Part shown: in pieces, positions 27,220-64,000 of the stretch
How positions within the stretch are numbered: the stretch's first letter is position 1
Layout: every line of letters starts with the position of its first letter
NCBI GenBank assembly: GCA_023229985.1
Contig: JALNYF010000003.1
Coordinates: 650-64,649 of the forward strand
DNA length: 64,000 nucleotides
Reading direction: 5' to 3'
Origin: Bacteroidales bacterium
GTDB taxonomy: Bacteria; Bacteroidota; Bacteroidia; Bacteroidales; WCHB1-69
Program-made: the position numbers and the translations under genes
Notes under the pieces: model-generated
The model's input: the letters and a program-made list of their open reading frames with translations, nothing else
What the model was told of the DNA's origin: nothing
Database searches by the model: none

Positions 27220-27708
27220 TTATTTTTTGATGGTAACACTTGCTATCACGGCAACCCCTTCGCCACTTCCAACAAAACCCATTTGCTCGTTTGTTTTTGC
27301 CTTAATGGAAACAACGTCCGGAGTAATCTGCAAAATTGTTGCCAACAAATTTTGCATCGCCACTTTATACGGAGACAACTTCGGCTTTTCTAAAATAATG
27401 GTAATATCTACATTATTCACTACCCAACGATGTTGGTGTAAAAGCATTACTGTTTTTTCCAAAAGAATGGTACTGTCAATATTTTTAAAGGCGGGATCAT
27501 TATCGGGGAAATGAGTGCCGATATCTTGGAGAGCAGCTGCGCCCAACAGAGCGTCGCATAAGGCATGAATAACCACGTCGCCGTCTGAATGAGCAACACA
27601 ACCTTTGTTAAATGGAATCGGAACACCGGCTAATCGCAAGGGCAAATTGTCAGCCAAACGATGGGAATCATACCCTAAACCAACCCTAAAATCGACGCTA
27701 TCTTGCAT
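27220..27708 (-). CDS. ispF: 2-C-methyl-D-erythritol 2,4-cyclodiphosphate synthase
   Basis: RVGLGYDSHRL and HSDGDV motifs; its start overlaps the porV stop by 11 nt. Confidence 0.9.
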   Translation of the reverse strand: MQDSVDFRVGLGYDSHRLADNLPLRLAGVPIPFNKGCVAHSDGDVVIHALCDALLGAAALQDIGTHFPDNDPAFKNIDSTILLEKTVMLLHQHRWVVNNVDITIILEKPKLSPYKVAMQNLLATILQITPDVVSIKAKTNEQMGFVGSGEGVAVIASVTIKK

Positions 27709-28948
27709 TCAGTTTTCCTTGTTCTTTGATCTCTTGTTTATCAAAAGAGGCAAAATCGAAAGTAAGGGTGAAGCGCAAAGTATTTTCCAGCGGGTGATGT
27801 TGATCAACAGTGAACAAATAAGCCACATCTAAGCCGAAAACACTATAATGAAGTCCGGCACCAATGGTAATAAACTGACGGTTTCCTTTATAAGGGCTTT
27901 CGAAGAAATATCCGGCTCTAACAGCCAAAAGTTCTCGATAAGTATATTCAATACCAACGGAATAATTAATTTCCCGCATTTCTTCTCTGAAACCACCGGG
28001 GGCATCTCCAAAAGATTGAAAAATACCTTCAACGACCGAAACATCAGGATTTTTTCCGCGTGCAATGATGCGATTTCCGGCAGCATCATATACATAATGG
28101 TCAGCAGAATCCAATTGATAAACCGGCGGGGTGGGGACTAATAATTTGTTGATTTCCGCACCAAACATCAGGGAATTATATTTATCGAAATCCATCGTAT
28201 AAGAGAGCCCCAATTTAAGATTGGTCGGGAGGAAGTCACGGCGCAATGTACCGGACGAATAGGAAATTTTATTTCCGATATTAGAAATATTTAAACCTGC
28301 TCTTAAAGTGCTGTTTTCTAATCTTTTTGTTCTGAAATCCTGTTCATAGAAGAGGGATAAATCGGCTGCACCGGCTAAGCCCGCCTCGGTATCCTGCCCA
28401 CCTACATTTTGACCCGCAGTCAAATTGGAGTAGATAAAGCGCGGGGTTAAAGAGATGGAGAGTTCGTCTATCAACTTGCGGGAGTAGCCCAAATCAATCG
28501 CAAATTCGTTTGGTTTTTGGTTACCCATCGATTCGCCGTTGATGTCGGTAAAAGCGATGTCACCCAAAGAGAAATATCTCAAAGAGAAAGAGATAGCATC
28601 ATTATCTGTTATTTTATAGTAGGAGGAGAGGTATAACAGGTTAATATCGTTTACCAATTTACGCAGCCATGGGCTATAGGAAATGGAGATGCCAAATATA
28701 TTGTCGTTAAAGACATATTTTGCCGGATTATGGTGTTGTGAATTGGCATCGGCAGATGTTGCCACGCCCATATCTCCCATTGCGCCGGCACGTGAGTCCG
28801 GAGCCACCAACAAGAAAGGAACTGCAGTCGTAATCGTGTTCAAATAACCGCGTCCAAGGTAATCATAATTTTTTCCATCAATAGTTTGAGCTAAAAGAGA
28901 GTTGCATAAGAGGATGACCACAGCTGACAAACAAAATAATTTCTTCAT
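27698..28948 (-). CDS. porV: T9SS outer-membrane shuttle protein PorV (LptO)
   Basis: TAVPFLLVAPDSRAGAMGDMGVATSADANSQHHNPAKY is the PorV N-terminal signature; beta-barrel-like alternating pattern; adjacent to porU. Confidence 0.85.
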   Translation of the reverse strand: MKKLFCLSAVVILLCNSLLAQTIDGKNYDYLGRGYLNTITTAVPFLLVAPDSRAGAMGDMGVATSADANSQHHNPAKYVFNDNIFGISISYSPWLRKLVNDINLLYLSSYYKITDNDAISFSLRYFSLGDIAFTDINGESMGNQKPNEFAIDLGYSRKLIDELSISLTPRFIYSNLTAGQNVGGQDTEAGLAGAADLSLFYEQDFRTKRLENSTLRAGLNISNIGNKISYSSGTLRRDFLPTNLKLGLSYTMDFDKYNSLMFGAEINKLLVPTPPVYQLDSADHYVYDAAGNRIIARGKNPDVSVVEGIFQSFGDAPGGFREEMREINYSVGIEYTYRELLAVRAGYFFESPYKGNRQFITIGAGLHYSVFGLDVAYLFTVDQHHPLENTLRFTLTFDFASFDKQEIKEQGKLNAR

Positions 28949-29006: not shown

Positions 29007-32000
29007 TTATAAGATGACAATTTTTTCAATTTTTTCGGCAGATTGTTGATTGGGGGTTCTCACCTTTAAACGATAAATATAGGTCCCCTTCGCCAACTTA
29101 TCGCCAAAATCATCGCGGGCATCCCAAGGAATCGGGCTGCTGCGATAACCGTCTGACAACTCGGAAGTTTCGATGGTTTTTACCAATTTACCGGAAATGG
29201 TATAAATCGAAATCATCACATCGAGCATCACGCCGGGTTGGTTATGTTCAAAGTAGAAAGCGGTTTGCGTCGTAAACGGATTGGGGTAGTTCAAGACGTG
29301 GTCAATGGTTAATGCTTCATCGGAAGCAACAGTAAATTCTATCGTTTGTTCCGAAACATTATTGAGAATATCCCAAGCACGGACTTTAATTTTATGAGTT
29401 CCGACTTTCAATTTTTCGTATGGATAACGCACTTGGCCGCAATTAAAACTATCGCGCGCGGCTTCGTAATGATTGTTCAAAATAATTTGGGTATTATCAT
29501 CCATGATGGCGACTAAATCGTGTCCTATGCCGTTTCCGGTCGTATTGATGCCATATTCGTCCTTCAATTTCACGATTAAAGTAGGTGACTGATTGACAGT
29601 GCCGCCGCTGACAAAGTTTTCATCATTCATAAACAATTCAATATCAGGACCTTTTACATCATTAAAAGATTCATTACTCATACTACCAATCACGGCATCC
29701 CCAAAAGCACCGGCAGCTTCAGCAGTACGACTATAGGCATAATAACTAAATTTCCCTTTTCCATAAGAATAATTAATATCTTTCGGAATAATAAACGAGA
29801 AACGGAATTGTCCGTTTTTTACAGTCACATTTCCTTTAAAAAGAATATTTTTTTGAACTTCAAATTCAAAATAACTACTGCCCACATCATTTTGCAACGT
29901 ATTGTTAATCACTTTTTTATCAAATATCGAAGGATACAGACCTCCGGAGAAATCGGATAAAATATTTCCAAAATCGTCGGCGATATGTCCAACAATCGTA
30001 ACACGCGAAAGGGCCTGAAGGGTATCTATTCCGTCGGCGACGGCTTTTCCGTTAACGGAATCGGTAACGACGTGGTATCTCGGCATAGCCAAACGCATGG
30101 AAGGGTCGCCCATTACATATATCATGTTAAGGGTATTGGCGGCACCGCCGGCAGAATTTTTGGCTACGCGATTTATTTCGCCGATGGTTTTCGGGGTTCC
30201 ATTATCCTCCATAAAAATATTGGAATAGAAAGCGGTAGCATATTGTTGATTAGAGCCGGTAAAAGCCACGCGGGAAGTAGTAACCAAACCGGCAGCTCCA
30301 CCATTGGCGTTCAGGAAGACTAATTCTGCGGGCGAAATCAGCGAGCGGTCATACCAACCGAACTCACACGTCAAAGTGATCATCCAAGGCTGATTATATC
30401 GATTACTCCATTTTTTGATGTCAGTCAATTCAACAATACGTTCGGTAGCCCAGCCGTTTTTACCGCCATGCCCCACGTATGCAAACAACAAACAGCCGGC
30501 ATTCATGCGATGATTGATGGCGGCGGCTGCTTCAGGATAACGTTGTGAAGCAGAATAAGTTACTTGCTGATACGCATCTAAATAAATTTTATCCAGATTG
30601 ATATTCGGATTATTTTGACCTGCCAATGTTGCCGCCAAATCAGCTGCCCGAATGTGGGTAGTACCGTCTTCATCATCTGCCACGAATGTTGCAACATTCT
30701 TCCAATCCCCGAAATTGGAGGTCAAGGGGTGGTCTTCACCCAGTATCTCGGTTGCGCTGTAATTAATTGACTTATTGACCGCTATTTGCGATTGAGCGAG
30801 GGTCGTCACTGGGAAGCGTCCCACCGAAATATCCAAAAAACCGACGCAATTCTCTCCTTCGTTATCATCTAATAGTGCAAAATAATCATCATTGGAACGA
30901 AGACTACTTTCATTGACGGCAGAACTAGTTTGATAATTGGGAACATATAATTTACAAGTATTCTCGCGTCCCCGATAATCGTAGGAAGGGCGACCAAACA
31001 ACAAGAGATATCTTGGATATACACCACCTGATTTATCATAAATCATCTTCATATAATCGCGAATGGCAGTAACATCTTGCGCCCCACTTGAAAATTCGTT
31101 ATAAATCTGCGCCGGGGTCACAATTTTGACCGAAAGGCCATCTTTTTCAGCACGAAAAGCGGCGAGCCGTTCCGCTTGAGAATTAAACTCAGGATAAGTA
31201 ACAATAATCATATCTACCTGACTTGTAGCATGTAAATTTTGATTTTCCACGCGCCCCACCCTATTCACGGAATAGAAAGCAGCACCATTAAAAGCAACAA
31301 AGCGGCGCATAGAATCACTCACGGCATTAAAAGCAAAAGTATTTCCCAATAAATCACCCTGCATTTGAACCGGTGAAGTCGGGTTTGTCACGTCCCAAAC
31401 ACGCACATTATTAGAAGCATCCGCAATGACATAGCGTGCAACATCGCTATTTAGCACTAATTCCACATTACAAAATGGAAATTGAGACGCATACATTTGC
31501 AACTGTCCCTGCATTTGCCATTCCATATAATTCAAGTAACCAACAGAAGAAGTAGTTGGTTTACTGTAAGTTAATGTAATATTCATGGTGGTACTGTTAG
31601 GAATGAACGTAAAATCGCGTGTCTCAGATTCCACCATGTTGGCACCGGATAATGCCGGTATGGAGGCTACCCCCAAAGTCGCGTTATTCAGTGCCACCGT
31701 AAAGTTTGATACCCTTGCCGATTGCGCCGCCACCGACAAATTCAGCACTGCTTGTTGCCCTGTGGAAGGCGGCAAAGCAAATGAATAACTCCGCACGGTT
31801 GTTGCATCATAAGCATCTCCCAACCAACATCTTCCTGCCTCTCCAATATTCAGAATATCCACTTCGTGATAACCATAATGAGTAAACGTATTGACAGTTT
31901 GAGCAGGTGCCAATGCCGAATTATCCAAAACGGTAATTCTTTTCTTAATCCCCACGCCAGGATCTAAATTGATGAAATAATAGGTATAATCACTGTAAAT

Positions 32001-32831
32001 ATTATACTGATGGTTAAAACGATGCGAATTTTGGCTATAGGTCCAAGAATGAGGACCTTGCGCATAAAAAACGAAATAATCGCCGGCATTAAAAACTTGA
32101 TCGTTCCCATCAACAATCAAAATGGGCAACTCACACAAATCATCATAACGGGGGGCATCATTACTCTCGGGAAGCATACCGCCGCCATTTCCGAAAATTG
32201 AAATAAGCGAGGAGCTTAGCTGGGAACCGGACGCTCCCATTGCCACTAAATCCTCATAAGTAACTTTGAACATGCCCGTTTGCGCCACCCCTACTTTGTA
32301 CCAACTGCCACTTGCCAACACCGATTGGGCAGCATAAGTCCTATCGGCTTTTGTTCCCTTCGTTGACAAACGCGGGGATATTGAAATCGTCACATCCATC
32401 AACTTTTCATAGCCGCCGGCGCGAGTTTTGCGAATGGGGACAAACGTGAGAACAGCGTAATTCTGTTTCTTCTCAACTACCGTTTTCACACTAACGCTCA
32501 ATTGATGAGCTTGAAAATCGGAAGGAATGAGGGCTTCCTCGTACGAACTCATTTTTTCGTAACGCTCTCCCGAAACGGTAACATCATAATCCTCAAAATA
32601 GGTTGAAACAGGCATTCTTTCAAAATACATGGGCAATTGCGGGAAATCGGGCGAGCCAATGGCACCGTCAAAATATAAAAGTTCCTTTTTATCTCCATTT
32701 TCCTGCTCAAAAATCAGCGTTTGATTCCACGTAACATTAATTTGTTTTTGAAAATTTTGAGCCTGAATATCAATAAATTGCAAGAAAAAAACAAAAACAA
32801 CAGACAAGGCTGCCCCAAAAAACCTATTCAT
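29007..32831 (-). CDS. porU: T9SS C-terminal signal peptidase/sortase PorU (gingipain-type C25 peptidase fold)
   Basis: About 1,274 aa with a signal peptide from MNRFFGAALSVVFVFFL (ATG 32831). Central C25-like region (YVGHGG..., TLTCEFG) and a C-terminal CTD-like beta-sandwich (YPNPFTTQTAFYFEHNQ...YIYRLKV). Immediately upstream of porV. Confidence 0.8.
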   Translation of the reverse strand: MNRFFGAALSVVFVFFLQFIDIQAQNFQKQINVTWNQTLIFEQENGDKKELLYFDGAIGSPDFPQLPMYFERMPVSTYFEDYDVTVSGERYEKMSSYEEALIPSDFQAHQLSVSVKTVVEKKQNYAVLTFVPIRKTRAGGYEKLMDVTISISPRLSTKGTKADRTYAAQSVLASGSWYKVGVAQTGMFKVTYEDLVAMGASGSQLSSSLISIFGNGGGMLPESNDAPRYDDLCELPILIVDGNDQVFNAGDYFVFYAQGPHSWTYSQNSHRFNHQYNIYSDYTYYFINLDPGVGIKKRITVLDNSALAPAQTVNTFTHYGYHEVDILNIGEAGRCWLGDAYDATTVRSYSFALPPSTGQQAVLNLSVAAQSARVSNFTVALNNATLGVASIPALSGANMVESETRDFTFIPNSTTMNITLTYSKPTTSSVGYLNYMEWQMQGQLQMYASQFPFCNVELVLNSDVARYVIADASNNVRVWDVTNPTSPVQMQGDLLGNTFAFNAVSDSMRRFVAFNGAAFYSVNRVGRVENQNLHATSQVDMIIVTYPEFNSQAERLAAFRAEKDGLSVKIVTPAQIYNEFSSGAQDVTAIRDYMKMIYDKSGGVYPRYLLLFGRPSYDYRGRENTCKLYVPNYQTSSAVNESSLRSNDDYFALLDDNEGENCVGFLDISVGRFPVTTLAQSQIAVNKSINYSATEILGEDHPLTSNFGDWKNVATFVADDEDGTTHIRAADLAATLAGQNNPNINLDKIYLDAYQQVTYSASQRYPEAAAAINHRMNAGCLLFAYVGHGGKNGWATERIVELTDIKKWSNRYNQPWMITLTCEFGWYDRSLISPAELVFLNANGGAAGLVTTSRVAFTGSNQQYATAFYSNIFMEDNGTPKTIGEINRVAKNSAGGAANTLNMIYVMGDPSMRLAMPRYHVVTDSVNGKAVADGIDTLQALSRVTIVGHIADDFGNILSDFSGGLYPSIFDKKVINNTLQNDVGSSYFEFEVQKNILFKGNVTVKNGQFRFSFIIPKDINYSYGKGKFSYYAYSRTAEAAGAFGDAVIGSMSNESFNDVKGPDIELFMNDENFVSGGTVNQSPTLIVKLKDEYGINTTGNGIGHDLVAIMDDNTQIILNNHYEAARDSFNCGQVRYPYEKLKVGTHKIKVRAWDILNNVSEQTIEFTVASDEALTIDHVLNYPNPFTTQTAFYFEHNQPGVMLDVMISIYTISGKLVKTIETSELSDGYRSSPIPWDARDDFGDKLAKGTYIYRLKVRTPNQQSAEKIEKIVIL

Positions 32832-33309
32832 ACTGCACGATAATAAAATGATTAAAACAGTACCATCATAAACGCAAAACAGTTCACAAAATTGCAAAAC
32901 GAGAATACTTTTTATACAATATCAATGATATGAACCATCATTGCCGCTACAAAACGCGCGCAACAGAAACGCACAAACATACAAACATCATAAAATTTCC
33001 CGTCAACCCGCAGAATAATCAAGAGATCATGCAAAACATTCATAGCGAATAAATTGTCCGATGACACGTTTGATTCCATACAGGACAGCCATCAAACGTC
33101 AATTTGAATAAAATTTATAGTCTGATAATCAATGCTTTATAAAAAATACTAAAAAAACAGAAGGAAACACCCAAGAAATGCGGAAAAAGTTACGTTAAGA
33201 ATGAATAATCAAAAGCTCATAATAGCACCCTAAAAAAAATAAAAAGCATAAAAATAGAAATGTTGATAACTTTTGATAAAAAAAGGCGTAAAGGTAAGAG
33301 ATAAAGTAT

Positions 33310-34348: not shown

Positions 34349-34415
34349 ACAAACTATACATAATTATAATATAAATAAAAAATCATCGTTCAACTTATTG
34401 AAAAAATCAACAAAA

Positions 34416-51816: not shown

Positions 51817-51843
51817 GCATCTCAACAGTATCGAAACTTCATG

Positions 51844-51851
51844 TATCTTTG
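51844..51851 (+). promoter_or_regulatory. -7 box TATCTTTG upstream of the deacetylase-like gene
   Basis: 24 nt upstream of the ATG at 51875. Confidence 0.45.
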
Positions 51852-51874
51852 CACATAATTTCAAAACAATCAAT

Positions 51875-53236: not shown

Positions 53237-53267
53237 TAAAAAAACGGGAGGTCAAAAACCTCCCGTT
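53237..53267 (-). terminator. GC-clamp hairpin plus U-tract terminating the giant gene (convergent with the deacetylase-like gene)
   Basis: Gene strand: AACGGGAGG-TTTTTGA-CCTCCCGTT followed by TTTTTAT; 20 nt after the stop at 53287. Confidence 0.75.
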
Positions 53268-53286: not shown

Positions 53287-56200
53287 CTATTTGGTAATGA
53301 CCAATTTCTTCGTAGTGAAATTAGCACCGTCGTTCAAAGTGACGAAATAAACGCCTTGTGCCCATTGAGCTATATCAACACGAACTTGATTATCGTTAAC
53401 GTTAGAAACATCATATTGAGACATCAATTTTCCATTAACATCAGTAATCGTGATATTTGCTTCTTCGCCCAACTCACCCAGGGTCATCACGAAATAGGTT
53501 TGTGCCGGGTTCGGATAAAGATCAATGAGAGTATTTCCATCATTTTCATTATCTTCAATGCCGGTTGGTGCAGTCAACGGATCTACTCCAATGTTATAGT
53601 GCAACGTTTCGGTAGCCAATAACAAGCCGGTGCTTTGAGCATTTTTACCACCTAAGCGTTTGCCGGTTGTCCAAGTCAAACCAAAATCAGTACCAGCGGT
53701 CATTTCAACCAAGTTGAAGACAATCGAATAATCGCCCGGAGCTGCCCACGTTGTGATAATTCTGCTGTGAGTACTATTCAGGAAGTGTAAGTAGAAATAG
53801 TTGTATAAATAGGTGGTAGTTGGAGCAAAGGTATTGCCCGGAATATTTCCTGTTCCTTCGGTCAAGTTCTTACCAATGTAACGCGACATATTGCCATAAT
53901 ACGTTTCCATTCTGATATTGGCAACATTTGACAACATCGAGATTGGTTCTTCACCGTCATAAATGGTGTATTCAATACTTACCTTGGTATTTTCTTCATA
54001 CGCATTTTTGCTGCAAATTAACGTATCGATAGAAGTAGCCTCATTAATAAGATCGGTGGTCAAAGACAAGGTCGGATTACCTATCGGGAACTCAGGAGTA
54101 CCAGGACCGTCACCGCCGGATTCTCCTTCAATGGTAAAGAAGATACTGCGAGTAGCCAAAATCGGATACAAATCAGTACTGTTCTTACCTCCAACATATT
54201 CGAGAGTATTGAAGTCGGAAGTGTAAGTCAGTGAGTAATCTGTACCACCTTCTTGTTGCAACAGGTCAAATACTATTTCGTACTCGCCCGGAGTGGTGAA
54301 TGTATGAGAAACAAGATTAGGACGTCTGTTAAAGAAATGGAAATAGAAGTAGTTGTATTGGTTATTACCCACACTAAACGTATTGGTAGGAATACTTCCC
54401 ATCGGAATATTCACACTGCGTCCTACGTAGCTGTTCAAGAAATAGGTAGAGAGATTCAATCTACCTCCACAAGCATCTTCCAAGTTGCTGACTACTTGAC
54501 CATCTTTATAAACGGTGTAAAGAAGTGCGACTTTCATATTTTGATCCATTTGGTTGGCATAAGCCGTCAGTTCATACGTTTGTTCATCTACTGAATCAAG
54601 AAGGATAAATGCATTCTCACCATAATCATTTGTAATGGTCAGATTGAAACGGATAATCATATCGCAGTTGTTACCTGCGGTTCTGACATAATAGGTACCG
54701 CTTTCACTATACAACTGATCAAAGAAACGATAAGGTACGTCGATAATCGAAATCGTTTGATCGACATCAACGGTATCCATTGGGATTACATTCATCGCAA
54801 GGAAGACAGTACTATCGCAACCGTTCTGAGCAGTCAGGTCTAATACATACTCGTACTCACCAGCCACATCCGGCACTTCAATATCAAAACCATAATCGGT
54901 AAAATATGTATCAGCGCACGTTTCGGCATCCAAATAGGTAACAATTTCAGGAATTACCGTAATCAACAGATTGGTAGTCGTTGTACATTGACCCAATGTA
55001 GCAACGAAATCAAGATTGAGAGACACTGTCATATTGTCAATAGTCAAACTACTGCCCTCAAACTGATCCGCATCTATTTGCCAATTCGTTTCTGTAGCAT
55101 TGGTAGCGGCTTCTAATTGCAGCGTTCCGCCATAACATAATGTTGTTTCGCCGATAATTTCAACGGTTGGAAGAGGCATTACATAAACTTGGATGTAATC
55201 GATACTATCACAACCATTGGCGAGAGTGAATTGGTCTGTAATCAAAGTATCGGCAAGAACCGTGAATTCGCGGATGTCATCAGAGTAAGTGCTACCGTAG
55301 CAAACATTTACATCTTGGTAGTGATAAACAGTAGGATTAACGTGCAGGGTTAAGCGGGTAATGCTATCGCAGCCTTGGGAAGATTCGCCATAAGAGTAGA
55401 AATAAGTATTATTTTCTGCATCCAAGTTACGGAGGCTGTCTTGTGGAATTACGAAGCCATAACCTTGATAGTCGCTGCCTTCACATACTTCTGCATTAAC
55501 TTCTACATAGCCAAATGTTTGATTATAAACAGGTAATACCCTCAATTCTAAAGCAGCGCGGTAAGTGCCGCAATAGTTTGTTCCGGTGATGATCGTATCT
55601 CTGACAACACCCGGCAATTGGGTTTCAGCCGCGGAAATATCAAATCCATTTTCCGTATAAGGCTCACCCTGACAAACAGTTGCATAGAAATCAGCAACAG
55701 AATCTAACGGTATAACTGTAACATAAACTGAATCGAGTGCCATACAAGTAGCTGTCGTTTCGTATAAATAATTCTGACTAGGAGTAACTGTACTAATAGC
55801 ATTGACATGGAAAATTGAATCTTTAGGAATGATCATTAATCCATCCGTTAGTAAATCAACAGCATAACAAGAACTTAGACTATTTTCAGTAGAAGTTAAG
55901 AAAGTATGAACAATCGGAGATAATCCTGCGGTAATCAAAGACTGGTCGATGTAATTCGCCGTAGTTGCATCATAAACTTCATCAACAGCAGGCAAATACC
56001 AATCACCATAAGTATTAATAGTGAGTGTATCGCAATAGTTAAATGCAGGATAAATGCTACGCCAGCCACCAATTGCACGAACTGCGGCCATATTATCGCG
56101 TCCGTTGGTCATACTGCCGGCATTAATGACGGTAATATCATCACCACTCCACTTCGCTAATTTTCCGCGAAGAGCAACCATATAGATCAAATCGGCAGTT

Positions 56201-59200
56201 GAGTCGATACGATATACAACGCCAACAGCGGTTTTACCCGATTCTGTAAAGTTGGCAGGTGATACAAAGAAATTATCGTTCGTCATGATGTCGCCAATAT
56301 GAACCTGATTGACACTTGCCAATAGGTGATACTCTTTATAACCGGTGACAGCGTAAGTGGCATCATGTAGTAGGTTATACAATGTATCAGTTGGTCCTGA
56401 AGCACCTGATTCCCAATTGTAATAATCGCAACCGGTTGCAGATAATACTGCATCTCCATTAGCACAGATTGTTATATCATTAGCCGACAGCGGAACATTA
56501 GGCATTACCGTTAAGTACAATGTAACAGTACTATCACAACCTAAGGCTGTATTGTAATAATGATGAAGAACAATTTGATATGGGCGGGTTGCATTTCCCA
56601 CTAAGGAATCAATTGCTCCTGCCGTCAGATGGAAACCATGATTTTGATATTCGCTACCTGCGCAAACATTATCGGAATATATAAAATCATAGGACTGATT
56701 GATAGTCAGATTCAGATGAACAATGGTATCATTTACACCATAAGCATCAGTAAAGGTGAGGTCAGTTTGAGTAGCTACATTATATTCTTCTCCGGAATAA
56801 ATGAATGGGAGATTTGACGAACAAACGACTGTATCCACATATAATTCAACGGTTTGTTCTGGAATGTTCATCGTAATTTCACGAGTTGCGAATTCCGTTT
56901 GAGTAGCCAATGCGCCACTACCACCAATACGTCTTGCCGGATTTCCGTATTCCGGTGAAACGTCGGTTCCACCTGCATACTCTCTCAAAATAAATTTGAT
57001 GGTATAAGATCCCGGTACATTCCAAGTAGCAGTCAGACGATTTTGGGTTGCATCCATAAAATGGAGATAGAAATAATTGTAATAGAAATAGATAACATTA
57101 AACGTATTCGTTGGAACAGAGCCTAAACCGTTCAATAAATCTCTTCCTATATATCTGTTCAAATCAGGATATCTTGTATCGAAATGAACGGTGCCGTATC
57201 TGCTAACATCGTCGATTAATACGCCATTGCGAGTGATTTCATAATCCAAAGCAACTTTGGTATTCAAATCGAGAGCAGCGGCATCCACACCAAGGGTGAA
57301 GCGATTAACCACACCGACAAGAGGACTGAGTGTAGTGGTATCAACCATAATAATAGGATCAGAAACAACGAAATCCAAGATAACCACACTATCACATCCG
57401 TGAATTGTTGGGAGGACATAAGTATAGGTTCCGGTACTTGTTAGTAAATTGCCATAATAGTTATATGGTAGCTGTGATGAAGCAACTGCCAATGATTCGC
57501 GAGTGGTATCGGAGTAGTTAACAGTCAAGTGGAGGGTTAACAAAGTATCACAATCCATCGTACCATCGCCGTCGCTATCAATATTTTCTGCGTAATTAAA
57601 ATAGGTATAATCACCACTTTCCGTATAGGTAATACCGGTTACGTCCCAAGTATATTCGTTACAAGCATTGATATTAATTTCCTCTTCAAATTGCGTATTA
57701 TTGAGTGTTAAGAAGAGAGAAACGATACTATCGCAACCAGCTTCGGATTGATAAATGCGAACGTGAGGATCCAAGTAAGAATCTGTGTTATAGGTAACTC
57801 CGTCCCAAACATAATCGTCTTGACAAGTACGAACAGTGAAAGATGTATAAAGCGTTGGAGCTACATTCACATGAAGCAATCTCATTTCATAATTTTCTTC
57901 TTCCTCAAACATGATGTGATAGTCACCGGCGCGAGAGATTTCATTTCCATAGTAGTCGTATGGAAGTTGGCTTTCGCAAAGGGTGATTTCTTCTGTGGTA
58001 GTATCCACCGGACTAACGATGATGGTAAGTGAATCGTATTCAAACATACGACCAGAATGTGTACTACCGGCACCACCTAAACGGTAAGTGTCATCATATA
58101 AATAAGGATAATCGTTACCACCGGTCATTTCGACTAATCTGAATACAAATTTATACTCACCGGGTTCTGTCCAAGTGGCACGTAATGTGTTATTGGTAGT
58201 GGTAAAGAAGCTAAAATAGAAGAAGTTGTAATCGTAATTATACATTGAATAAGTGGTACCGGGTATTGATCCCAATCCGCTTTGGAGAATATTACCAAAT
58301 TCCTCGTGAATCAATGGATATTCCGTTTCAATTCGAATGCGACCGAAAGTGTCCATTGGACCAACGGCTACGCCATCTTTGTATAATTGGAAATCCATTG
58401 CCAATTTAATATCGGAATTATATTCACAAGCGGTACGACAGTTAATCGGCACTTCCATTTCGGCATAAACCGGAACAGCAACACGGCGGCTCGCGATGTC
58501 AATATATGGTTGATTACCAATACGCAAATCCAAGTAATAAACAATACTATCACAGCCATTTTGTCTCAAAATGCGAACAGTATCCATGGCAGATTCCGTA
58601 TAGTTTTCACCATTAACATACCAATGATAGGTTTCGCCTTCGCAGAGACGTTTTACCACACGACTTTCTACCGGATATAAAACTGACAAGTGCAAAGTAA
58701 CAACGCTGTCGCAGCCGGTAGAAGATTGGAAGGTCAAATAATAGTCGCCGGAGCGATTACAAATGACGCGGTTATCGTCATCTCCGAATACGAGCGGAAG
58801 TTCGCTGGCGCAAACCGTTCTATACTCTTCGCTGCCAATGGCAATCACCTCTACTTGGCTGACCGCTGTTTCCGAACAGCCCGTAGTTCTGTCGGTAACT
58901 ACAACCTCATATCGTTGAGTACCCACGGCGGGACGCAAAGCTCCCACAACGGAAGTGTTGAAGCTGACCAAATGCCCGCCATCGGTTTGTGACCATTGGT
59001 AATCTGAATTATCATCCAAATCAGTATAACTGAAAATTTCGACATTGCTTCCGAAGCATACGGTTGTATCGACAGGAGTGAGATACAGATGATGAGCGGG
59101 GTGTACCATCACCTCAACGGCGCGGCTGTAGGTGATACCACATCCATTTTCAACTCTGTAGCGAACCCAGCTTCCACGCCACGTATCATAAACAGGATCT

Positions 59201-62200
59201 GTAATATTAAATGCCGTGAACGGAGTATTTTCATTAATTAGGCTGTCGGGTGATTGAACCCAGCCTTCGGTACAAGGCAATCCACCGTTACTAATAATGG
59301 TAGAAGGAGTCATCACTAATGGCGATCCGGAGCATATTTCACGTGGATTCGGGTCAGTAATATCAGTCAATTGCGGTATATCATTTACAATAATTTGAAT
59401 GAAATTACTACGTGCCGTACCGCAGACATTGGAAATAGCATATTTGATGTAATATTCGTCCATTCCATAATCTATCACGGAATCGATCGGGAAAGTAGTA
59501 TAAACACCTGCATTATAAATGGGTGAATATTCCCATGATTCCGAGTATTCGGTGTTCCCATTGTCGATAATGGCAGGAGCTGTAACAGGCAATGGGATAC
59601 CGGCGCAGATAGGAGCTATCTCAGCCAAGTTTCCGATACGCGGAATATTGTAAATCGTAATATTCACATAATTTGAATAGGTTATGCCGCAATAATTTTG
59701 TGCCCAATAACGTACAGTAATATCATGGCCGTATGGCAGAATCATGTCAGCACTATAGTTAACCATGACTCCATCTACGTAAACTTCCCAACCTTCTGAT
59801 GTCACAGCACCGCTGTTATTATGGAAATCTACTTGCGGTTGGAATGCAGCCCAATTCATCTGATTTCCGTAGCAGATAGGATCAGGGGTGAGCAACGTAG
59901 CAATTGCGGGCATTGAATCAACGGTGATTATTACGTCATTGCTATAGCCAAATCCACAATGGTTTTGTACCATATAATGAATACTGCTACCGTTCAATTC
60001 TTCGGTAATTGTCAAATCTGTCAAATCCACGTAATTCGAACCATCGGTTGTATATTGCCAACCATTGCTCCAGGCGATTACATCATCCATTCCGACATAA
60101 TCCCATGAAGGAGTATTAATTGGTAATTGATCTCCATCACAGATAGTAGCCGGTTGAATAATATCAGACACAATCGGAACAGTAGTTACATACACGGTTT
60201 TGGCTATACATTCGGTAGGATCGCAGAAATCACTTTTACGTCTTACATAATAAGTAGTAGTTTGGAAAGGAGATACGGTAACAGATTCAGTAGTTTCGTT
60301 TAATAGATTTGTTCCACATTCATCTTCGAACCATTCATAATAACCGTTGTCCCCGAGGAAACCGCCATTAGCGGTAAGGGTGACAGATTCTCCTTGGCAA
60401 ATGGTTGTATCGCCAAATATGGTATCAATCGGCTCGGGAGGTACTCCTACATTCACTTGAATAGGATATCTATTTTCAGAAATACAGCCAAAAATAGTCA
60501 CATCATTCAATTCATAGCCTATCTGTCCAACGTAATTACGGTGCTCTAAGTTGTCATAAAAACCGCCTGCGTCGGTAGAAGGCGTGTTGGGAACACCATA
60601 GCCTTGATAAAGCGTCAAGAAACGGGAAGATCTCAACACATCAGTACCGATTTCGGAATGAGGATTATATTGAATCCCTGCATCGGTCGATACATAAATA
60701 GAATATAACTGATCGGCAGGTATTTCAAATGGTGTTAGCAATGAAATTGTAAGGTCGCCATTAGTAGATGTATTGAAGTTACGATTTTCAACAAGTGTCC
60801 AAGCACTTGGGAAGCCGGTAAAGCTTTCGCAAGTACCGGATTTATAATAAATATAAATAGGATAATTACCCTCATTAACGGTCGTAACTTTTATTTCTTG
60901 AATAGAAACCGCAGAAGCACCGGCTTGAACATCAAAGAAGCAACCTAAGCCGTTGAGTTCTTGGGTATAAGGAGGTGTAGCTATCTCAAAATAACCGGAA
61001 GCCGTCAACATATCTGTAGCTGCAGCCGCATAGTATATGGTTGTATCTAACGGATTGACAACCAATCCACCCACTTCCGGATTGGTAAATCCGAGAGATT
61101 CGGTAGTATTGGCATCTGCATACCACAATATCATCGGGAGTTCAGCATCGGGGTCTTGCTGATAATCTGCCATAGCAAAAGCAGATATAGTAGCTTCAGA
61201 GCCGGTACAGATGGTTGGGGGTTCTGAATAACCGTAGAAAGGTCCCTCAATAGGAGTTACGGAAACTGTAACGGGAATTGTATCCGATGTGCAGAGGAAT
61301 CCGCCTTGTTGATTAACCATTGGAATAATTCGGGCAAAGCCGTTTCCTTGTCTGCCGATTTGCAATTCACCGGTTGGGGTAGGCATTTCTTGGTTACCGG
61401 CAATCATTTGGGCATCATACATACCGGTTACGAAGCTTCTACCGCCGCCGCCACCGGAAGCATAGTTACCTGCGCCGCCACCGCCGTAATAGCCGCCACC
61501 GCCACCACCGGAGCCACCGGCAGAAGAACTGCATCCACCGGAGCCACCGACGCCACCGGCATAAGTGCTTCCATTGCCACTACTACCGCTACTATAACCG
61601 CTTGCGCCGCCGCCGTAAAGATAACCACCGGAAGAACCGCCGGAACCGGCTGCACCACCACTATTTTCGGTAGCACCATAGCCAAAATAGCCATTACCGC
61701 TGCTCGGGCTTCCGTTGATACCATTCAATGCACCACCGGCACCACCGGCACCGCCGGAACCATGTTGTGATCCACCGGAGGATGAGCCGCCACCGCCGCC
61801 ACCGCCGCCGGCTGCTACCATCAAAATAGAGGAGTTAAGTTGTACCATGGAGAAACCTCCACCGCCGCCGCCACCGGCTGCATTATCGCTGCACCATCCG
61901 CCGCTGCCACCGCCGCCGCCACCGTAGCCACCGTTACCACCGGGACAATTCGGGCAAATCGGATTAGAAGCAGTTGAACCACCTTGTTGTCCTACGACTA
62001 CAGTAAATTGATCATTCAAGTTAACATCTATTATACCTTCTACATAAGCGCCCTTACCACCGGCAGATCCGAGATAAGGTCCGTCGCCACCGTTACCGCC
62101 TTGGGCTCCCCAAAGCTGTAATTTCAAATGCTCAACTCCCGGAGGTACAATATAAGATTGCGGAGATCCACTATATGTAAATTCTATGGGCTCTCCTTCA

Positions 62201-64000
62201 ACCAATCCACCCTCGATCTCACCGGAATAAGCAACCAAATAGAAAGTAGTTTGGTTAACCACTTGCGGAGTTTCATACAAAGCACCTTCGTAAAGCAGCT
62301 CTGTACATTCCGGATCGGCATACCAACGATAAGTAAAATCATTATTAACATTCGTTGGAGCAAGGTTTCCAACAGTACCACAAAGAGTGGTAACATCTTC
62401 TAATATAGGATTTTCTATTGGATTAACGGTAATATTAACCTCAGCAACATCGGAAACGCAAAGCGTTAATAAATCATTATAAATGATTCGGGCATAGCCG
62501 TTGCCTTCACGTCCGGTCATCGTACCACCCGCAGGATTGGGCATGGATTGATTACCGGCAATGGTTTGACCATTGTTGACGCCGCCAATGTAGCCGGAAC
62601 CACCGCTACCACCACCGCCATCAGCACCCAAGCTTTCCGAACCGGAAGGAGAGGCACCGCCGTACCAGCCGCCGCCGCCGCCACCACCGTCTCCAATAGT
62701 ATTGCCGCCTTGACCAAATGAGCCATTGGCACTTGAATTAGAGGAATTTGTTCCTCCGCCACTCTGTGTCCCTGCGGTTGCTGGATAGGACTGACCGGAT
62801 CCCTGAACACCGACAGTACCACCACCGGCACCACCTTGTTCATCATCTTCTCCGTGACCACCGCCACCGCCGGCAACTATTAACACTGAAGGACGATTAC
62901 CTGACAAAGAAGATAACAATCCTGACACGGTAGCAATATGCGTTGCACCACCACCGGAACTGCCATATTCACCACTTGTGCTTAATGAACGATAACCACC
63001 ACCATTATAACCACCGGCTAATATGGTGTTAGATGCAGTACTGCCGACCGGAATACTGGTACCGGCACCGGCGACATTAATATAAACGGTTTGTCCCGCA
63101 TTGAGTGTTATTTCACCGGAAGAATATCCACCTTTTCCACCATTAGTGGTTACAGCATTATAATCGCTTGAACTTCCATTTCCACCGGCACCGCCCCATA
63201 CTTGAAGAGAATAGGTTGTGGTTACGGGTGCAGTAAAGGTCTGTTCCCCACCGGTATAGCTGAACTCGATAGTATCGGCAAGTGGAGCCAAGACCATGGA
63301 TTTAACATAATAGGTTGTATTGTCGCCTAACATAGGGATATCCCAAGTGCTGCCAGTGTGTACTTCTTGTGTACATTGGGGATCAGAGTACCAAATATAG
63401 GTATAACCCGGCACAGCGTCTGCAACTGCAAGGTGAGTGGTTTCGCCGCAAGTGATTTCCACATCTTGCACTTCCGGAGCTTGTGGAGGCACAACCGAGA
63501 CATGAACCGATGCCACGGGGGATTCACACATTTCACCACCACCAATGACGGTAATTCTGGCAAAGCCGTTGCCTTCACGTCCGGTCATAGTTCCACCGGC
63601 CGGATTAGGCATCGTTTGGTTACCGGCGATTGTTTGCGCGTTGGTTACACCGTCAATATAACCGGATCCACCGGTACCTCCTTCACCATCATCATTATCT
63701 AAAAAAGACGGATAGTCTCCACCCGAACCGGCGCCGCCATACCAGCCGCCGCCACCACCTGAACCGGACGTGCCATATTCTCCGGCACCTCCTTGTCCAA
63801 ATGAACCGGAACCACCACCCATACTAGATGTTCCTCCACCACTTTGGGTTGCTCCATAATTGGTACCTCTTGAGGTTGTACTGGGCGTCGTAAGTCCACC
63901 ACCAACACCACCGGCAGCACTGGTACCAGACGTACCACCTCCACCACCGGCTACTATCAAAACTGCATTGCGATTGCCTGAAAGAGATGATAAAACTCCT
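53287..64000 (-). CDS. Giant mosaic T9SS cargo / surface protein (more than 3,570 aa in window; N-terminus beyond the window edge)
   Basis: Uninterrupted frame from 64000 to the TAG at 53287-53289. The track start (63960) is an internal TTG: the upstream in-frame residues GVLSSLSGNRNAVL continue a repeat seen again at SGLLSSLSGNRPSVL. C-terminal T9SS CTD. Internal repeat families are listed separately. Confidence 0.9.
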   Translation of the reverse strand, partial: GVLSSLSGNRNAVLIVAGGGGGTSGTSAAGGVGGGLTTPSTTSRGTNYGATQSGGGTSSMGGGSGSFGQGGAGEYGTSGSGGGGGWYGGAGSGGDYPSFLDNDDGEGGTGGSGYIDGVTNAQTIAGNQTMPNPAGGTMTGREGNGFARITVIGGGEMCESPVASVHVSVVPPQAPEVQDVEITCGETTHLAVADAVPGYTYIWYSDPQCTQEVHTGSTWDIPMLGDNTTYYVKSMVLAPLADTIEFSYTGGEQTFTAPVTTTYSLQVWGGAGGNGSSSDYNAVTTNGGKGGYSSGEITLNAGQTVYINVAGAGTSIPVGSTASNTILAGGYNGGGYRSLSTSGEYGSSGGGATHIATVSGLLSSLSGNRPSVLIVAGGGGGHGEDDEQGGAGGGTVGVQGSGQSYPATAGTQSGGGTNSSNSSANGSFGQGGNTIGDGGGGGGGWYGGASPSGSESLGADGGGGSGGSGYIGGVNNGQTIAGNQSMPNPAGGTMTGREGNGYARIIYNDLLTLCVSDVAEVNITVNPIENPILEDVTTLCGTVGNLAPTNVNNDFTYRWYADPECTELLYEGALYETPQVVNQTTFYLVAYSGEIEGGLVEGEPIEFTYSGSPQSYIVPPGVEHLKLQLWGAQGGNGGDGPYLGSAGGKGAYVEGIIDVNLNDQFTVVVGQQGGSTASNPICPNCPGGNGGYGGGGGGSGGWCSDNAAGGGGGGGFSMVQLNSSILMVAAGGGGGGGGSSSGGSQHGSGGAGGAGGALNGINGSPSSGNGYFGYGATENSGGAAGSGGSSGGYLYGGGASGYSSGSSGNGSTYAGGVGGSGGCSSSAGGSGGGGGGYYGGGGAGNYASGGGGGRSFVTGMYDAQMIAGNQEMPTPTGELQIGRQGNGFARIIPMVNQQGGFLCTSDTIPVTVSVTPIEGPFYGYSEPPTICTGSEATISAFAMADYQQDPDAELPMILWYADANTTESLGFTNPEVGGLVVNPLDTTIYYAAAATDMLTASGYFEIATPPYTQELNGLGCFFDVQAGASAVSIQEIKVTTVNEGNYPIYIYYKSGTCESFTGFPSAWTLVENRNFNTSTNGDLTISLLTPFEIPADQLYSIYVSTDAGIQYNPHSEIGTDVLRSSRFLTLYQGYGVPNTPSTDAGGFYDNLEHRNYVGQIGYELNDVTIFGCISENRYPIQVNVGVPPEPIDTIFGDTTICQGESVTLTANGGFLGDNGYYEWFEDECGTNLLNETTESVTVSPFQTTTYYVRRKSDFCDPTECIAKTVYVTTVPIVSDIIQPATICDGDQLPINTPSWDYVGMDDVIAWSNGWQYTTDGSNYVDLTDLTITEELNGSSIHYMVQNHCGFGYSNDVIITVDSMPAIATLLTPDPICYGNQMNWAAFQPQVDFHNNSGAVTSEGWEVYVDGVMVNYSADMILPYGHDITVRYWAQNYCGITYSNYVNITIYNIPRIGNLAEIAPICAGIPLPVTAPAIIDNGNTEYSESWEYSPIYNAGVYTTFPIDSVIDYGMDEYYIKYAISNVCGTARSNFIQIIVNDIPQLTDITDPNPREICSGSPLVMTPSTIISNGGLPCTEGWVQSPDSLINENTPFTAFNITDPVYDTWRGSWVRYRVENGCGITYSRAVEVMVHPAHHLYLTPVDTTVCFGSNVEIFSYTDLDDNSDYQWSQTDGGHLVSFNTSVVGALRPAVGTQRYEVVVTDRTTGCSETAVSQVEVIAIGSEEYRTVCASELPLVFGDDDNRVICNRSGDYYLTFQSSTGCDSVVTLHLSVLYPVESRVVKRLCEGETYHWYVNGENYTESAMDTVRILRQNGCDSIVYYLDLRIGNQPYIDIASRRVAVPVYAEMEVPINCRTACEYNSDIKLAMDFQLYKDGVAVGPMDTFGRIRIETEYPLIHEEFGNILQSGLGSIPGTTYSMYNYDYNFFYFSFFTTTNNTLRATWTEPGEYKFVFRLVEMTGGNDYPYLYDDTYRLGGAGSTHSGRMFEYDSLTIIVSPVDTTTEEITLCESQLPYDYYGNEISRAGDYHIMFEEEENYEMRLLHVNVAPTLYTSFTVRTCQDDYVWDGVTYNTDSYLDPHVRIYQSEAGCDSIVSLFLTLNNTQFEEEININACNEYTWDVTGITYTESGDYTYFNYAENIDSDGDGTMDCDTLLTLHLTVNYSDTTRESLAVASSQLPYNYYGNLLTSTGTYTYVLPTIHGCDSVVILDFVVSDPIIMVDTTTLSPLVGVVNRFTLGVDAAALDLNTKVALDYEITRNGVLIDDVSRYGTVHFDTRYPDLNRYIGRDLLNGLGSVPTNTFNVIYFYYNYFYLHFMDATQNRLTATWNVPGSYTIKFILREYAGGTDVSPEYGNPARRIGGSGALATQTEFATREITMNIPEQTVELYVDTVVCSSNLPFIYSGEEYNVATQTDLTFTDAYGVNDTIVHLNLTINQSYDFIYSDNVCAGSEYQNHGFHLTAGAIDSLVGNATRPYQIVLHHYYNTALGCDSTVTLYLTVMPNVPLSANDITICANGDAVLSATGCDYYNWESGASGPTDTLYNLLHDATYAVTGYKEYHLLASVNQVHIGDIMTNDNFFVSPANFTESGKTAVGVVYRIDSTADLIYMVALRGKLAKWSGDDITVINAGSMTNGRDNMAAVRAIGGWRSIYPAFNYCDTLTINTYGDWYLPAVDEVYDATTANYIDQSLITAGLSPIVHTFLTSTENSLSSCYAVDLLTDGLMIIPKDSIFHVNAISTVTPSQNYLYETTATCMALDSVYVTVIPLDSVADFYATVCQGEPYTENGFDISAAETQLPGVVRDTIITGTNYCGTYRAALELRVLPVYNQTFGYVEVNAEVCEGSDYQGYGFVIPQDSLRNLDAENNTYFYSYGESSQGCDSITRLTLHVNPTVYHYQDVNVCYGSTYSDDIREFTVLADTLITDQFTLANGCDSIDYIQVYVMPLPTVEIIGETTLCYGGTLQLEAATNATETNWQIDADQFEGSSLTIDNMTVSLNLDFVATLGQCTTTTNLLITVIPEIVTYLDAETCADTYFTDYGFDIEVPDVAGEYEYVLDLTAQNGCDSTVFLAMNVIPMDTVDVDQTISIIDVPYRFFDQLYSESGTYYVRTAGNNCDMIIRFNLTITNDYGENAFILLDSVDEQTYELTAYANQMDQNMKVALLYTVYKDGQVVSNLEDACGGRLNLSTYFLNSYVGRSVNIPMGSIPTNTFSVGNNQYNYFYFHFFNRRPNLVSHTFTTPGEYEIVFDLLQQEGGTDYSLTYTSDFNTLEYVGGKNSTDLYPILATRSIFFTIEGESGGDGPGTPEFPIGNPTLSLTTDLINEATSIDTLICSKNAYEENTKVSIEYTIYDGEEPISMLSNVANIRMETYYGNMSRYIGKNLTEGTGNIPGNTFAPTTTYLYNYFYLHFLNSTHSRIITTWAAPGDYSIVFNLVEMTAGTDFGLTWTTGKRLGGKNAQSTGLLLATETLHYNIGVDPLTAPTGIEDNENDGNTLIDLYPNPAQTYFVMTLGELGEEANITITDVNGKLMSQYDVSNVNDNQVRVDIAQWAQGVYFVTLNDGANFTTKKLVITK
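53290..53540 (-). other. T9SS type-A C-terminal sorting domain of the giant protein
   Basis: GNTLIDLYPNPAQTYFVMTL...ANITITDVNGKLMSQY...GVYFVTLNDGANFTTKKLVITK. Confidence 0.8.
53581..54078 (-). repeat. Unassigned ~166-aa domain, copy D
   Basis: KVSIEYTIYDG...GTGNIPGNTFAPTTTYLYNYFYLHFL...IITTWAAPGDYSIVFNLVEMTAGTD...RLGGKN. Confidence 0.55.
54121..54624 (-). repeat. Unassigned ~166-aa domain, copy C
   Basis: KVALLYTVYKDG...PMGSIPTNTFSVGNNQYNYFYFHFF...LVSHTFTTPGEYEIVFDLLQQEGGTD...YVGGKN. Confidence 0.55.
55795..56310 (-). other. DUF1566 / Lcl C-terminal-like domain embedded in the giant protein
   Basis: IGDIM...GKTAVGVVYRIDST.DLIYMVAL...W...TNGRDNMAAV...YPAFNYCDTL...YGDWYLPAVDEVY matches the DUF1566 pattern (G..VFY....GL.A..D..W....G..NT..I.....A...C.....DWYLPS..EL). 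Confidence 0.5.
56860..57357 (-). repeat. Unassigned ~166-aa domain, copy B
   Basis: KVALDYEITRNG...GLGSVPTNTFNVIYFYYNYFYLHFM...LTATWNVPGSYTIKFILREYAGGTD...RIGGSG. Confidence 0.55.
58009..58510 (-). repeat. Unassigned ~166-aa domain, copy A (YNYFY-type)
   Basis: KLAMDFQLYKDG...GLGSIPGTTYSMYNYDYNFFYFSFF...LRATWTEPGEYKFVFRLVEMTGGND...RLGGAG. Confidence 0.55.
59101..60156 (-). repeat. Four tandem ~88-aa Cys-containing repeats (Ig-like?)
   Basis: Each unit follows P-x-x-I-C-x-G...W(E/Q/V)...Y...(Q/S/E)N-x-CG(F/I/T)..S(N/R)-x-(V/I)-x-(I/V)-x-V. Example endings: QNHCGFGYSNDVIITV, QNYCGITYSNYVNITI, SNVCGTARSNFIQIIV, ENGCGITYSRAVEVMV. Confidence 0.6.
61318..62187 (-). repeat. Glycine-rich module 3 (complete, about 290 aa, most Gly-expanded)
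   Basis: IEFTYSGSPQSYIVPPGVEHLKLQLWGAQGGNGG...GGKGAYVEGIIDVNLNDQFTVVVGQQG...MVAAGGGGGGGG...GGGGGGYYGGGG...QMIAGNQEMPTPTGELQIGRQGNGFARIIPM. Confidence 0.6.
62476..63270 (-). repeat. Glycine-rich module 2 (complete, about 265 aa)
   Basis: IEFSYTGGEQTFTAP...YSLQVWGGAGGNG...GGKGGYSSGEITLNAGQTVYINVAGAG...LIVAGGGGG...GGGGGGGWYGG...QTIAGNQSMPNPAGGTMTGREGNGYARIIYN. Confidence 0.6.
63535..64000 (-). repeat. Glycine-rich module 1 (C-terminal part only; Gly_rich/ALK-LTK-like)
   Basis: ...LIVAGGGGG...GGGGGWYGGAGSGG...GSGYIDGV..AQTIAGNQTMPNPAGGTMTGREGNGFARITVIGGG. Confidence 0.6.

Follow-up and report, generated by a model that had tools for sequence, protein, structure and literature searches.

Giant mosaic proteins that end in a C-terminal sorting domain (CTD) for secretion by the type IX system (T9SS) are routine in Bacteroidota. 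Among the large surface proteins exported by this route are SprB and RemA of Flavobacterium johnsoniae and the gingipains of Porphyromonas gingivalis, the latter with a type-A CTD and attachment by PorU and PorV. In the rumen, Bacteroidetes export multi-modular fibre-degrading proteins via the T9SS (PMC5831590). A second group of described proteins is related by a glycine-rich domain that occurs in receptor kinases and in phage fibres. In the tail fibre gp24 of cyanophage Pam3, domains of the TNF-like and the glycine-rich type are said to form the host-recognition part and to resemble ALK (7LIR) (PMC9608196), and a preprint on polyproline-II bundles, in which bacterial surface proteins are not mentioned, counts ALK, LTK and the tip of phage S16 gp38 as domains of this kind. 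Our literature search on PF12810, the Pfam family of the ALK/LTK domain, or on T9SS glycine-rich giant adhesins retrieved no characterised bacterial member. The gene described here brings the two groups together. It lies on the minus strand at 53287..64000 of a 64,000-nucleotide stretch of contig JALNYF010000003.1 (assembly GCA_023229985.1, Bacteroidales bacterium); we refer to this whole stretch as the window. Judged from its sequence, the gene is real and intact, and it is predicted to encode a surface protein of very large size in an uncultured Bacteroidales bacterium. We consider it reasonably probable, by analogy with the described systems, that this protein serves as an adhesin anchored by PorU, in which glycine-rich binding modules form a distal array and a conserved cassette lies close to the cell.

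An unbroken frame and its missing 5' end

Translation of the minus strand from position 63999 gives 3,570 sense codons with a single stop, the TAG at 53287-53289, so that the gene fills 16.7% of the window. An open frame of this length would arise by chance with a probability of ~1e-98, calculated at the window G+C of 41%. The start listed by the open reading frame (ORF) program, a TTG at 63960, is internal: the frame stays open up to the window edge, and the N-terminal residues upstream of it, GVLSSLSGNRNAVLIVAGGGGG, repeat an internal segment, SGLLSSLSGNRPSVLIVAGGGGG. Beyond the stop codon, positions 53267-53243 hold a T-run and a stem of 11 bp, 6 of them G-C. A reading made earlier from the sequence alone had proposed one giant frame, an internal TTG and a strong terminator, and had named in-frame stops as the sign of a pseudogene; our data bear out the first three, and the 10.7-kb frame holds no such stop. 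The G+C content outside the glycine-rich part (~0.40) equals that of the remaining window (0.405), and the gene therefore looks native. Its product is acidic and very low in lysine.

Several independent assemblies contain the same gene at 96-99% identity, and this agreement speaks against a pseudogene or an artefact. In the complete 64,860-base contig the protein (P0001) has 3,623 aa, begins in the middle of a glycine-rich domain and is cut at the contig end; an exact look-up of the P0001 sequence in the contig collection returned no contig. We reached other contigs through a neighbouring 439-aa protein, on record in 154 collection blocks, and on the six contigs listed with this neighbour the giant gene is cut off where the contig stops. 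All copies obtained in this way or through the protein cluster end within the N-terminal repeats, at 3,190 to 4,132 residues. Two of the relatives, HPT52251.1 (3,808 aa) and HNW67929.1 (3,721 aa), have one extra unit of glycine-rich domain and Ig_7 and are also truncated. Since the copy of 4,132 residues still runs off its contig, at least ~560 residues lie beyond the window edge, and the full protein is therefore longer than 4,132 residues and carries at least five such units.

The domain map was drawn from a Pfam scan, self-BLAST and hidden Markov models (HMMs) built from the window's own copies (own HMM below); models were calculated with AlphaFold2.

53287..64000, minus strand: giant ORF, 3,570 codons plus TAG, 5' end beyond the window; equals P0001
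63538..63999, minus strand (residues 1-154): glycine-rich domain of the ALK/LTK type (putatively TNF-like with polyglycine), unit 1; PF12810 and own HMM, partial at the window edge
63274..63522, minus strand (residues 160-242): Ig_7 (CHU_C-associated Ig-like) 1; PF19081 at 87.8 bits, best stretch 172-234
62464..63282, minus strand (residues ~240-512): glycine-rich unit 2; Pfam best stretch 262-506, unit modelled by AlphaFold2
62218..62454, minus strand (residues 516-594): Ig_7 2; Pfam, self-BLAST and own HMM
61303..62202, minus strand (residues ~600-899): glycine-rich unit 3, the richest in glycine; also a weak Gly_rich_2 match
60991..61287, minus strand (residues 905-1003): Ig_7 3, a longer variant; self-BLAST and own HMM
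60436..61032, minus strand (residues 990-1188): unassigned segment of ~200 aa, also in a few other proteins including P0010, P0013 and P0132
60190..60465, minus strand (residues 1179-1270): Ig_7 4; PF19081 at 44.6 bits on the isolated segment
59095..60177, minus strand (residues 1275-1635): four tandem two-cysteine repeats of ~89 aa (R88); self-BLAST, alignment A5
58834..59082, minus strand (residues 1640-1722): PKD-like/Ig-like domain, sub-threshold (PKD_6 20.7 bits against 25; Ig_7 18 bits)
58507..58863, minus strand: GCDS modules 1-2; own HMM
58000..58506, minus strand (residues 1832-2000): domain of ~166 aa (D166), copy 1; alignment A1, AlphaFold2 model
57352..58035, minus strand: GCDS modules 3-6; own HMM
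56845..57357, minus strand (residues 2215-2385): D166 copy 2; self-BLAST, alignment A1
56494..56883, minus strand: GCDS modules 7-8; own HMM
55705..56397, minus strand (residues 2535-2765): insert with weak similarity to Lcl_C (formerly DUF1566), PF07603 sub-threshold
55168..55734, minus strand: GCDS modules 9-11; own HMM
54622..54975, minus strand: GCDS modules 12-13; own HMM
54115..54636, minus strand (residues 3122-3295): D166 copy 3; self-BLAST, alignment A1
53566..54087, minus strand (residues 3305-3478): copy 4 of D166, a short way upstream of the CTD; self-BLAST, alignment A1
53296..53520, minus strand: type-A T9SS CTD; PF18962 and TIGR04183, with YPNP, GVYFV and KKLVITK motifs in the sequence
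53243..53267, minus strand: intrinsic-terminator-like hairpin and T-run, 20 nt past the stop, between two convergent genes

The window protein thus holds three glycine-rich modules, four Ig_7 domains, one segment of ~200 aa, four repeats of ~89 aa, one PKD-like domain, 13 GCDS modules (10 canonical and 3 degenerate) and four copies of D166, with the GCDS modules arranged around the D166 copies in a cassette of residues 1713-3478. The order of modules and the set of repeats agree with the sequence-only reading. Its Gly-rich module belongs to a known family, PF12810, and the DUF1566 call lies below threshold.

Tandem ALK-type domains and the C-terminal cassette

The glycine-rich modules match the Pfam ALK/LTK domain PF12810 in three stretches with 185 bits (threshold 24.5), and this identity is supported by a profile search and, with moderate similarity, by the modelled fold. 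A single-sequence phmmer search of the Protein Data Bank (PDB) with unit 2 gave no match. The 28-sequence profile A3 matched the PDB sequences of ALK (7MZW, E 3.1e-13), LTK (7NX0, 1.4e-11) and Caenorhabditis elegans SCD-2 (7LIR, 1.9e-7), and the alignment spans profile positions 13-232, the non-glycine β-strand parts included. Unit 2 was modelled with a predicted local distance difference test score (pLDDT) of 91.9 and a predicted template-modelling score (pTM) of 0.92. The top 21 PDB fold matches of this model are all glycine-rich domains of ALK, LTK or SCD-2 (E 7e-9 to 3e-6), and a mycobacteriophage tail-tip protein ranks after them. Against the predicted viral structures of BFVD, 82 matches were obtained at E <= 0.001. 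Most are proteins of phages and giant viruses, with cyanophage virion structural proteins among them; the best match has a template-modelling (TM) score of 0.81, deviates by 2.5 Å (root-mean-square deviation, rmsd) and shares 40% identity. As modelled, unit 2 fits phage virion proteins even better than the ALK/LTK structures. Some of the BFVD matches (A0A8S5SE10, A0A8S5QTR7, A0A385EC16) are named "receptor protein-tyrosine kinase" in UniProt; these names presumably derive from the ALK/LTK glycine-rich domain and are probably wrong.

The C-terminal part of the protein is distinguished by its conserved order. A search with the whole protein returned 727 proteins at E <= 1e-10, most of which share the glycine-rich domains only, with or without Ig_7 or CTD. 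About a dozen metagenomic homologues (P0002-P0010, P0012, P0013, P0127-P0132) keep the C-terminal order Ig_7, four R88, (PKD-like), two GCDS, D166, GCDS, D166, GCDS, D166, D166 and type-A CTD, at 30-35% identity and with lengths of 1.6-6.1 kaa (6,134 aa at most). Towards the N-terminus they differ from one another and hold other modules such as FN3, MAM and Flg_new_2. Arrays of glycine-rich domain and Ig_7 are present in most homologues with an assembled N-terminal region, and P0012 has Ig_7 without the glycine-rich domain. None of the same-order homologues bears a functional name; all are uncharacterised metagenomic proteins, and no characterised homologue of this domain order, which the earlier reading had named as a counter-argument, turned up. 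The orthologues are named "glycine-rich protein [Bacteroidales bacterium]" at NCBI. In species-representative genomes, a locus search with a 5-sequence alignment placed all 12 loci in metagenome-assembled genomes (MAGs) of uncultured Bacteroidales, and the isolate sources, where named, are rumen, abomasum, sheep caecum and horse faeces. Two MAGs, Tb.RUG.44 (L007/L008) and RGIG5234 (L010/L012), hold two loci with the D166 cassette each, which implies that paralogous giant genes can coexist in one genome.

D166 is confidently modelled as a β-sandwich: the AlphaFold2 prediction from a 30-sequence alignment (A1) is all-β with a pLDDT of 96.5 and a pTM of 0.89. A family assignment from the fold search had to be rejected, as only generic Ig-V/β-sandwich PDB structures matched (TM <= 0.43, rmsd 5-15 Å). 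The D166 profile found only noise among PDB sequences (E >= 0.29), and a Pfam scan of 30 copies gave no family beyond weak, sporadic matches to PKD. Among 1.84 billion cluster representatives, the D166 HMM matched 242 proteins with E <= 0.001, of which 25 reached E <= 1e-30. D166 is therefore rare, and it often co-occurs with a T9SS CTD among these matches. Four proteins of ~253-262 aa (P0137, P0140, P0141, P0142) consist of one D166 and a T9SS CTD and nothing else, so D166 is also a stand-alone T9SS cargo; they would make the easiest targets for work on structure and function.

The GCDS modules measure ~55-65 aa and have two cysteines in the pattern C...Y...GCDS..L.L.V. Neither they nor the R88 repeats matched Pfam or, searched as profiles, PDB sequences, and the 990-1188 segment likewise had no match in Pfam or among PDB sequences; that it is a β-sandwich is a guess of the sequence-only reading. 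Kinship between R88 and Ig_7, GCDS and Ig_7 or GCDS and R88 was dismissed on hhalign probabilities of 2-14%, and these modules are treated as unrelated at that depth. Between GCDS modules, two stretches with cysteines (residues 2503-2535 and 2945-3008, about 54975-55167 and 56395-56493) show the pattern C.G...W...C; they look like further Ig_7/PKD-type domains, with no match to our HMMs or Pfam. For the insert at residues 2535-2765, which the sequence-only reading had called DUF1566-like, the similarity to Lcl_C (PF07603) stays below the Pfam threshold (14.5 bits against 34.9, E 0.044, residues ~2648-2719), and homology and PDB sequence searches with this segment returned no match. It does contain a GDWYLPAVDE motif, which we take to resemble the Lcl_C family motif. 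The insert is absent from P0002-P0013 and, among the family members compared, is confined to the lineage of the window.

Between strains, identity to HPT52251.1 and HNW67929.1 is mosaic, with long blocks of 100% and others of 90-96%. Such blocks alternate in P0001 at residues ~2000-2700 (window ~55900-58150), and the pattern suggests, at the sequence level, recombination within the gene. From residue ~150 onward, independent NCBI, ENA and JGI assemblies agree at 90-100% identity. The first glycine-rich unit at the contig end shares 57-66% identity with its positional counterpart in two other assemblies, and the Ig_7 domain right after it is ~96% identical to P0122/P0125 with few substitutions. 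Compared with residues ~111-393 of P0122/P0125, the first unit (window 63400-64000) is of a different sequence type. This divergence is due either to an exchange of cassettes among strains or to a mis-joined contig end.

Sorting signal, surface anchoring and alternative roles

The C-terminal 75 residues match PF18962 (Por_Secre_tail) with 52.6 bits (cut-off 27) and the type-A model TIGR04183 with 46.9 bits (cut-off 23). The domain occupies residues 3494-3568 of 3570 and thus the extreme C-terminus, with the stop two residues on. In the same Pfam and NCBIfam scans, the type-C model reached just 11.8 bits against a cut-off of 40 and the type-B model had no match. The type-A assignment made earlier is therefore sustained by two models above their curated cut-offs. 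Part of the export machinery is encoded in the same window:

27698..28948, minus strand: PorV, T9SS outer-membrane shuttle; NF033710 at 487.9 bits, cut-off 250
29007..32897, minus strand: PorU, T9SS sortase; NF033707 at 1240.8 bits, cut-off 420
33359-34348: PorP/SprF-family gene; 236.7 bits, above cut-off
34398-35912, plus strand: GldJ-like gene; 442.5 bits, below the GldJ equivalog cut-off of 458.2

The earlier statement that export genes lie 17-26 kb from the giant gene holds for the distance and for porU, porV and the porP/sprF family, and its gldJ is GldJ-like only. This ORF also resembles PorK/GldK (206 bits), in a lineage outside Flavobacteriia. Sov/SprA and PorK/L/M/N were not found in the window. 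PorU, the presumed processing and attachment enzyme for the giant cargo, is a "long form" with an extra N-terminal domain (NF052318, 58.2 bits) and itself matches the TIGR04183 CTD (27.7 bits, residues 1204-1290). A second T9SS cargo in the window is an S8 peptidase of 629 aa (42978-44867, plus strand) with a type-A CTD (TIGR04183, 42.6 bits).

Based on the T9SS models of P. gingivalis and F. johnsoniae, the protein would be carried across the inner membrane by Sec; two complete-looking homologues, P0005 and P0013, begin with sequences that, judged by eye, resemble signal peptides. The type-A CTD would then be recognised by the T9SS and, after passage of the outer membrane, PorV would hand the cargo to the sortase PorU, which would cut off the CTD and join the new C-terminus to a surface glycolipid. 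In this orientation the C-terminal cassette of four 89-aa repeats, 13 GCDS modules and four 166-aa β-sandwiches would lie next to the cell. The variable N-terminal array, with at least five TNF-like/polyglycine (ALK-type) domains that are each followed by an Ig_7 spacer, would point outward. If ALK/LTK, where this type of fold binds the ligand, and the cyanophage tail fibre, where it forms the host-recognition tip, are a guide, the glycine-rich domains may act as multivalent ligand-binding heads, which would make the protein an adhesin; candidate targets are a particle, a glycan or another cell. A more far-reaching version, which we put forward as a tentative idea and consider rather doubtful, sees the N-terminal array as a cellular counterpart of phage receptor-binding tips, with swappable, strain-variable TNF-like/polyglycine heads for microbes, protozoa, host or fibre. 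The bacterial and phage pool would then be the source of the metazoan ALK/LTK ligand-binding domain, and R88, GCDS and D166 would be three new families of T9SS cargo, with D166 a new β-sandwich variant beside the CTD.

Several points weigh against a PorU-anchored adhesin. Some type-A cargos are released in other species, and the glycolipid anchor is carried over from the P. gingivalis model. No assembly examined contains the N-terminus and signal peptide of the window protein, be it on the neighbour-gene contigs or among the cluster members. The fold match of unit 2 to ALK/LTK is specific yet moderate (TM 0.42-0.48, rmsd ~8 Å), and bacterial glycine-rich domains are not known to bind a ligand. 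Moreover, ~60% of the protein has no assigned family, and for this reason an unrecognised enzymatic or other activity is conceivable. The Pfam and NCBIfam scans of the window protein revealed no catalytic or toxin domain, and enzyme and toxin readings were rejected accordingly.

Among the alternatives, a role in substrate capture deserves most attention. The protein could be secreted or vesicle-associated, with D166, the 990-1188 segment and the Lcl_C-like insert as carbohydrate-binding modules for plant fibre in the herbivore gut. All relatives in the genome collection come from rumen, caecum or faecal Bacteroidales MAGs, and the T9SS export of multi-modular fibre-degrading proteins by rumen Bacteroidetes (PMC5831590) is in line with such a function. 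The weak Lcl_C similarity and the confident β-sandwich of D166, to which no function is assigned, would also fit. However, our scans of Pfam and NCBIfam found no carbohydrate-binding module, glycoside hydrolase or other carbohydrate-active family, and neither adjacent polysaccharide-utilisation genes nor a neighbour conserved across species accompany the gene. We regard substrate capture as unlikely.

A structural surface coat or fibril, either an S-layer-like or spacer layer or a means of cell-cell aggregation without a specific ligand, appears improbable to us. The extreme length and the tandem small disulfide-type modules (13 GCDS, four R88, at least four Ig_7) are typical of stalk-like proteins, and the acidic composition with very little lysine would suit such a layer. 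Against this stands the variability of the N-terminus, where the module set changes between homologues and the first glycine-rich unit changes between strains (57-66% identity, compared with 96-100% elsewhere), which fits recognition better than pure structure. In addition, what study there has been of the glycine-rich fold makes it a recognition module (Pam3, PMC9608196).

A mobile gliding-motility adhesin of the SprB/RemA type can be given very little credence. The GldJ-like and PorP/SprF-family genes within the window and a size which we take to be similar to that of SprB would point in this direction; on the other hand, neither a SprB repeat (PF13573) nor a type-B CTD (CHU_C/TIGR04131) was found in the protein, its CTD being type A, the nearest PorP/SprF-family gene lies 19 kb off instead of adjacent, and the GldJ-like ORF falls under the GldJ cut-off. 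The SprB-like reading was rejected on the missing repeat, type-B CTD and adjacent sprF/porP-like gene. Finally, an assembly chimera or decaying repeat pseudogene is hardly credible: every assembly breaks within the N-terminal repeat region and the divergent first unit at the contig end could be a mis-join, but the frame is free of stops, residues from ~150 are corroborated by the independent assemblies, the glycine-rich units of the window do not exceed 80% DNA identity to one another, and the domain boundaries are clean with confident AlphaFold2 models.

For the PorU-anchored adhesin that we favour, the gene neighbourhood offers no constant partner. Across the homologue loci compared, no neighbour gene is conserved between species, while two closely related ruminal MAGs share downstream genes. 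The giant gene therefore stands alone, as the sequence-only reading had assumed in speaking of a single gene and not a multi-gene system. The DUF7033/VimE-like, flippase and tRNA-synthetase genes were considered as operon partners and discarded, since they do not lie beside homologues in other species. At 50368-53194 on the plus strand, two genes converge on the giant gene and encode a Polysacc_synt (flippase-type) protein and a DUF7033 protein that weakly resembles VimE (164.8 bits, cut-off 440). In P. gingivalis, VimE is a deacetylase of the synthesis of A-LPS, the glycolipid anchor of type-A cargos. The two convergent genes might relate to anchor-glycan synthesis.

Comparison with known systems

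The closest relatives, HPT52251.1 and HNW67929.1, represent the same gene in the same or a very close species; they share its domain order, are ~96% identical to it and do not differ from it at the C-terminus. Where the window has its first glycine-rich unit, they carry a different sequence type, and they are known from annotation only.

With ALK, LTK and SCD-2 (7MZW, 7NX0, 7LIR; PF12810), the window protein shares the glycine-rich domain by Pfam and profile and, as modelled, moderately by fold. These are receptor kinases, whereas the window protein is a bacterial T9SS cargo with a TM score of ~0.45 to them. In contrast to ALK and LTK, it repeats the domain at least five times, each copy followed by Ig_7, and no ligand of the ALKAL type is expected for it. 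The fibres of cyanophage Pam3 (gp24) and Salmonella phage S16 (gp38) have the TNF-like/polyglycine fold that is also predicted for the window units. They are trimeric with one distal module, whereas the window protein is a cellular surface protein with tandem modules in one chain.

SprB, RemA and the gingipains are likewise large surface proteins exported by the T9SS. The window protein lacks SprB repeats, a type-B CTD, an adjacent sprF, peptidase C25 and cleaved-adhesin domains, according to the Pfam and NCBIfam scans, and the earlier impression that its combination of modules differs from these adhesins is thereby confirmed. The same reading ranked the gene as the best candidate for new biology in the window, which is too high, since giant mosaic CTD proteins are so common in the phylum. 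The window protein is an uncharacterised member of this very common class and no new kind of system, its orthologues were already labelled "glycine-rich protein" and its key module is a Pfam domain.

The practical gains are modest, and no long-standing question becomes directly testable. If our interpretation is true, the gene reveals how adhesins of great length, anchored by PorU, are assembled in uncultured gut Bacteroidales from a conserved cell-proximal cassette and exchangeable ALK-like heads. It also illustrates clearly that the "ALK/LTK" glycine-rich domain is chiefly an extracellular module of bacteria and phages. D166, GCDS and the 89-aa repeat are well delimited and could become new family models. 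Compared with the described systems, what is new is the rare conserved C-terminal cassette with its three unnamed modules, among them D166 with a high-confidence model and no close solved structure, together with the evidence for an ALK-type fold in tandem on a bacterial surface protein.

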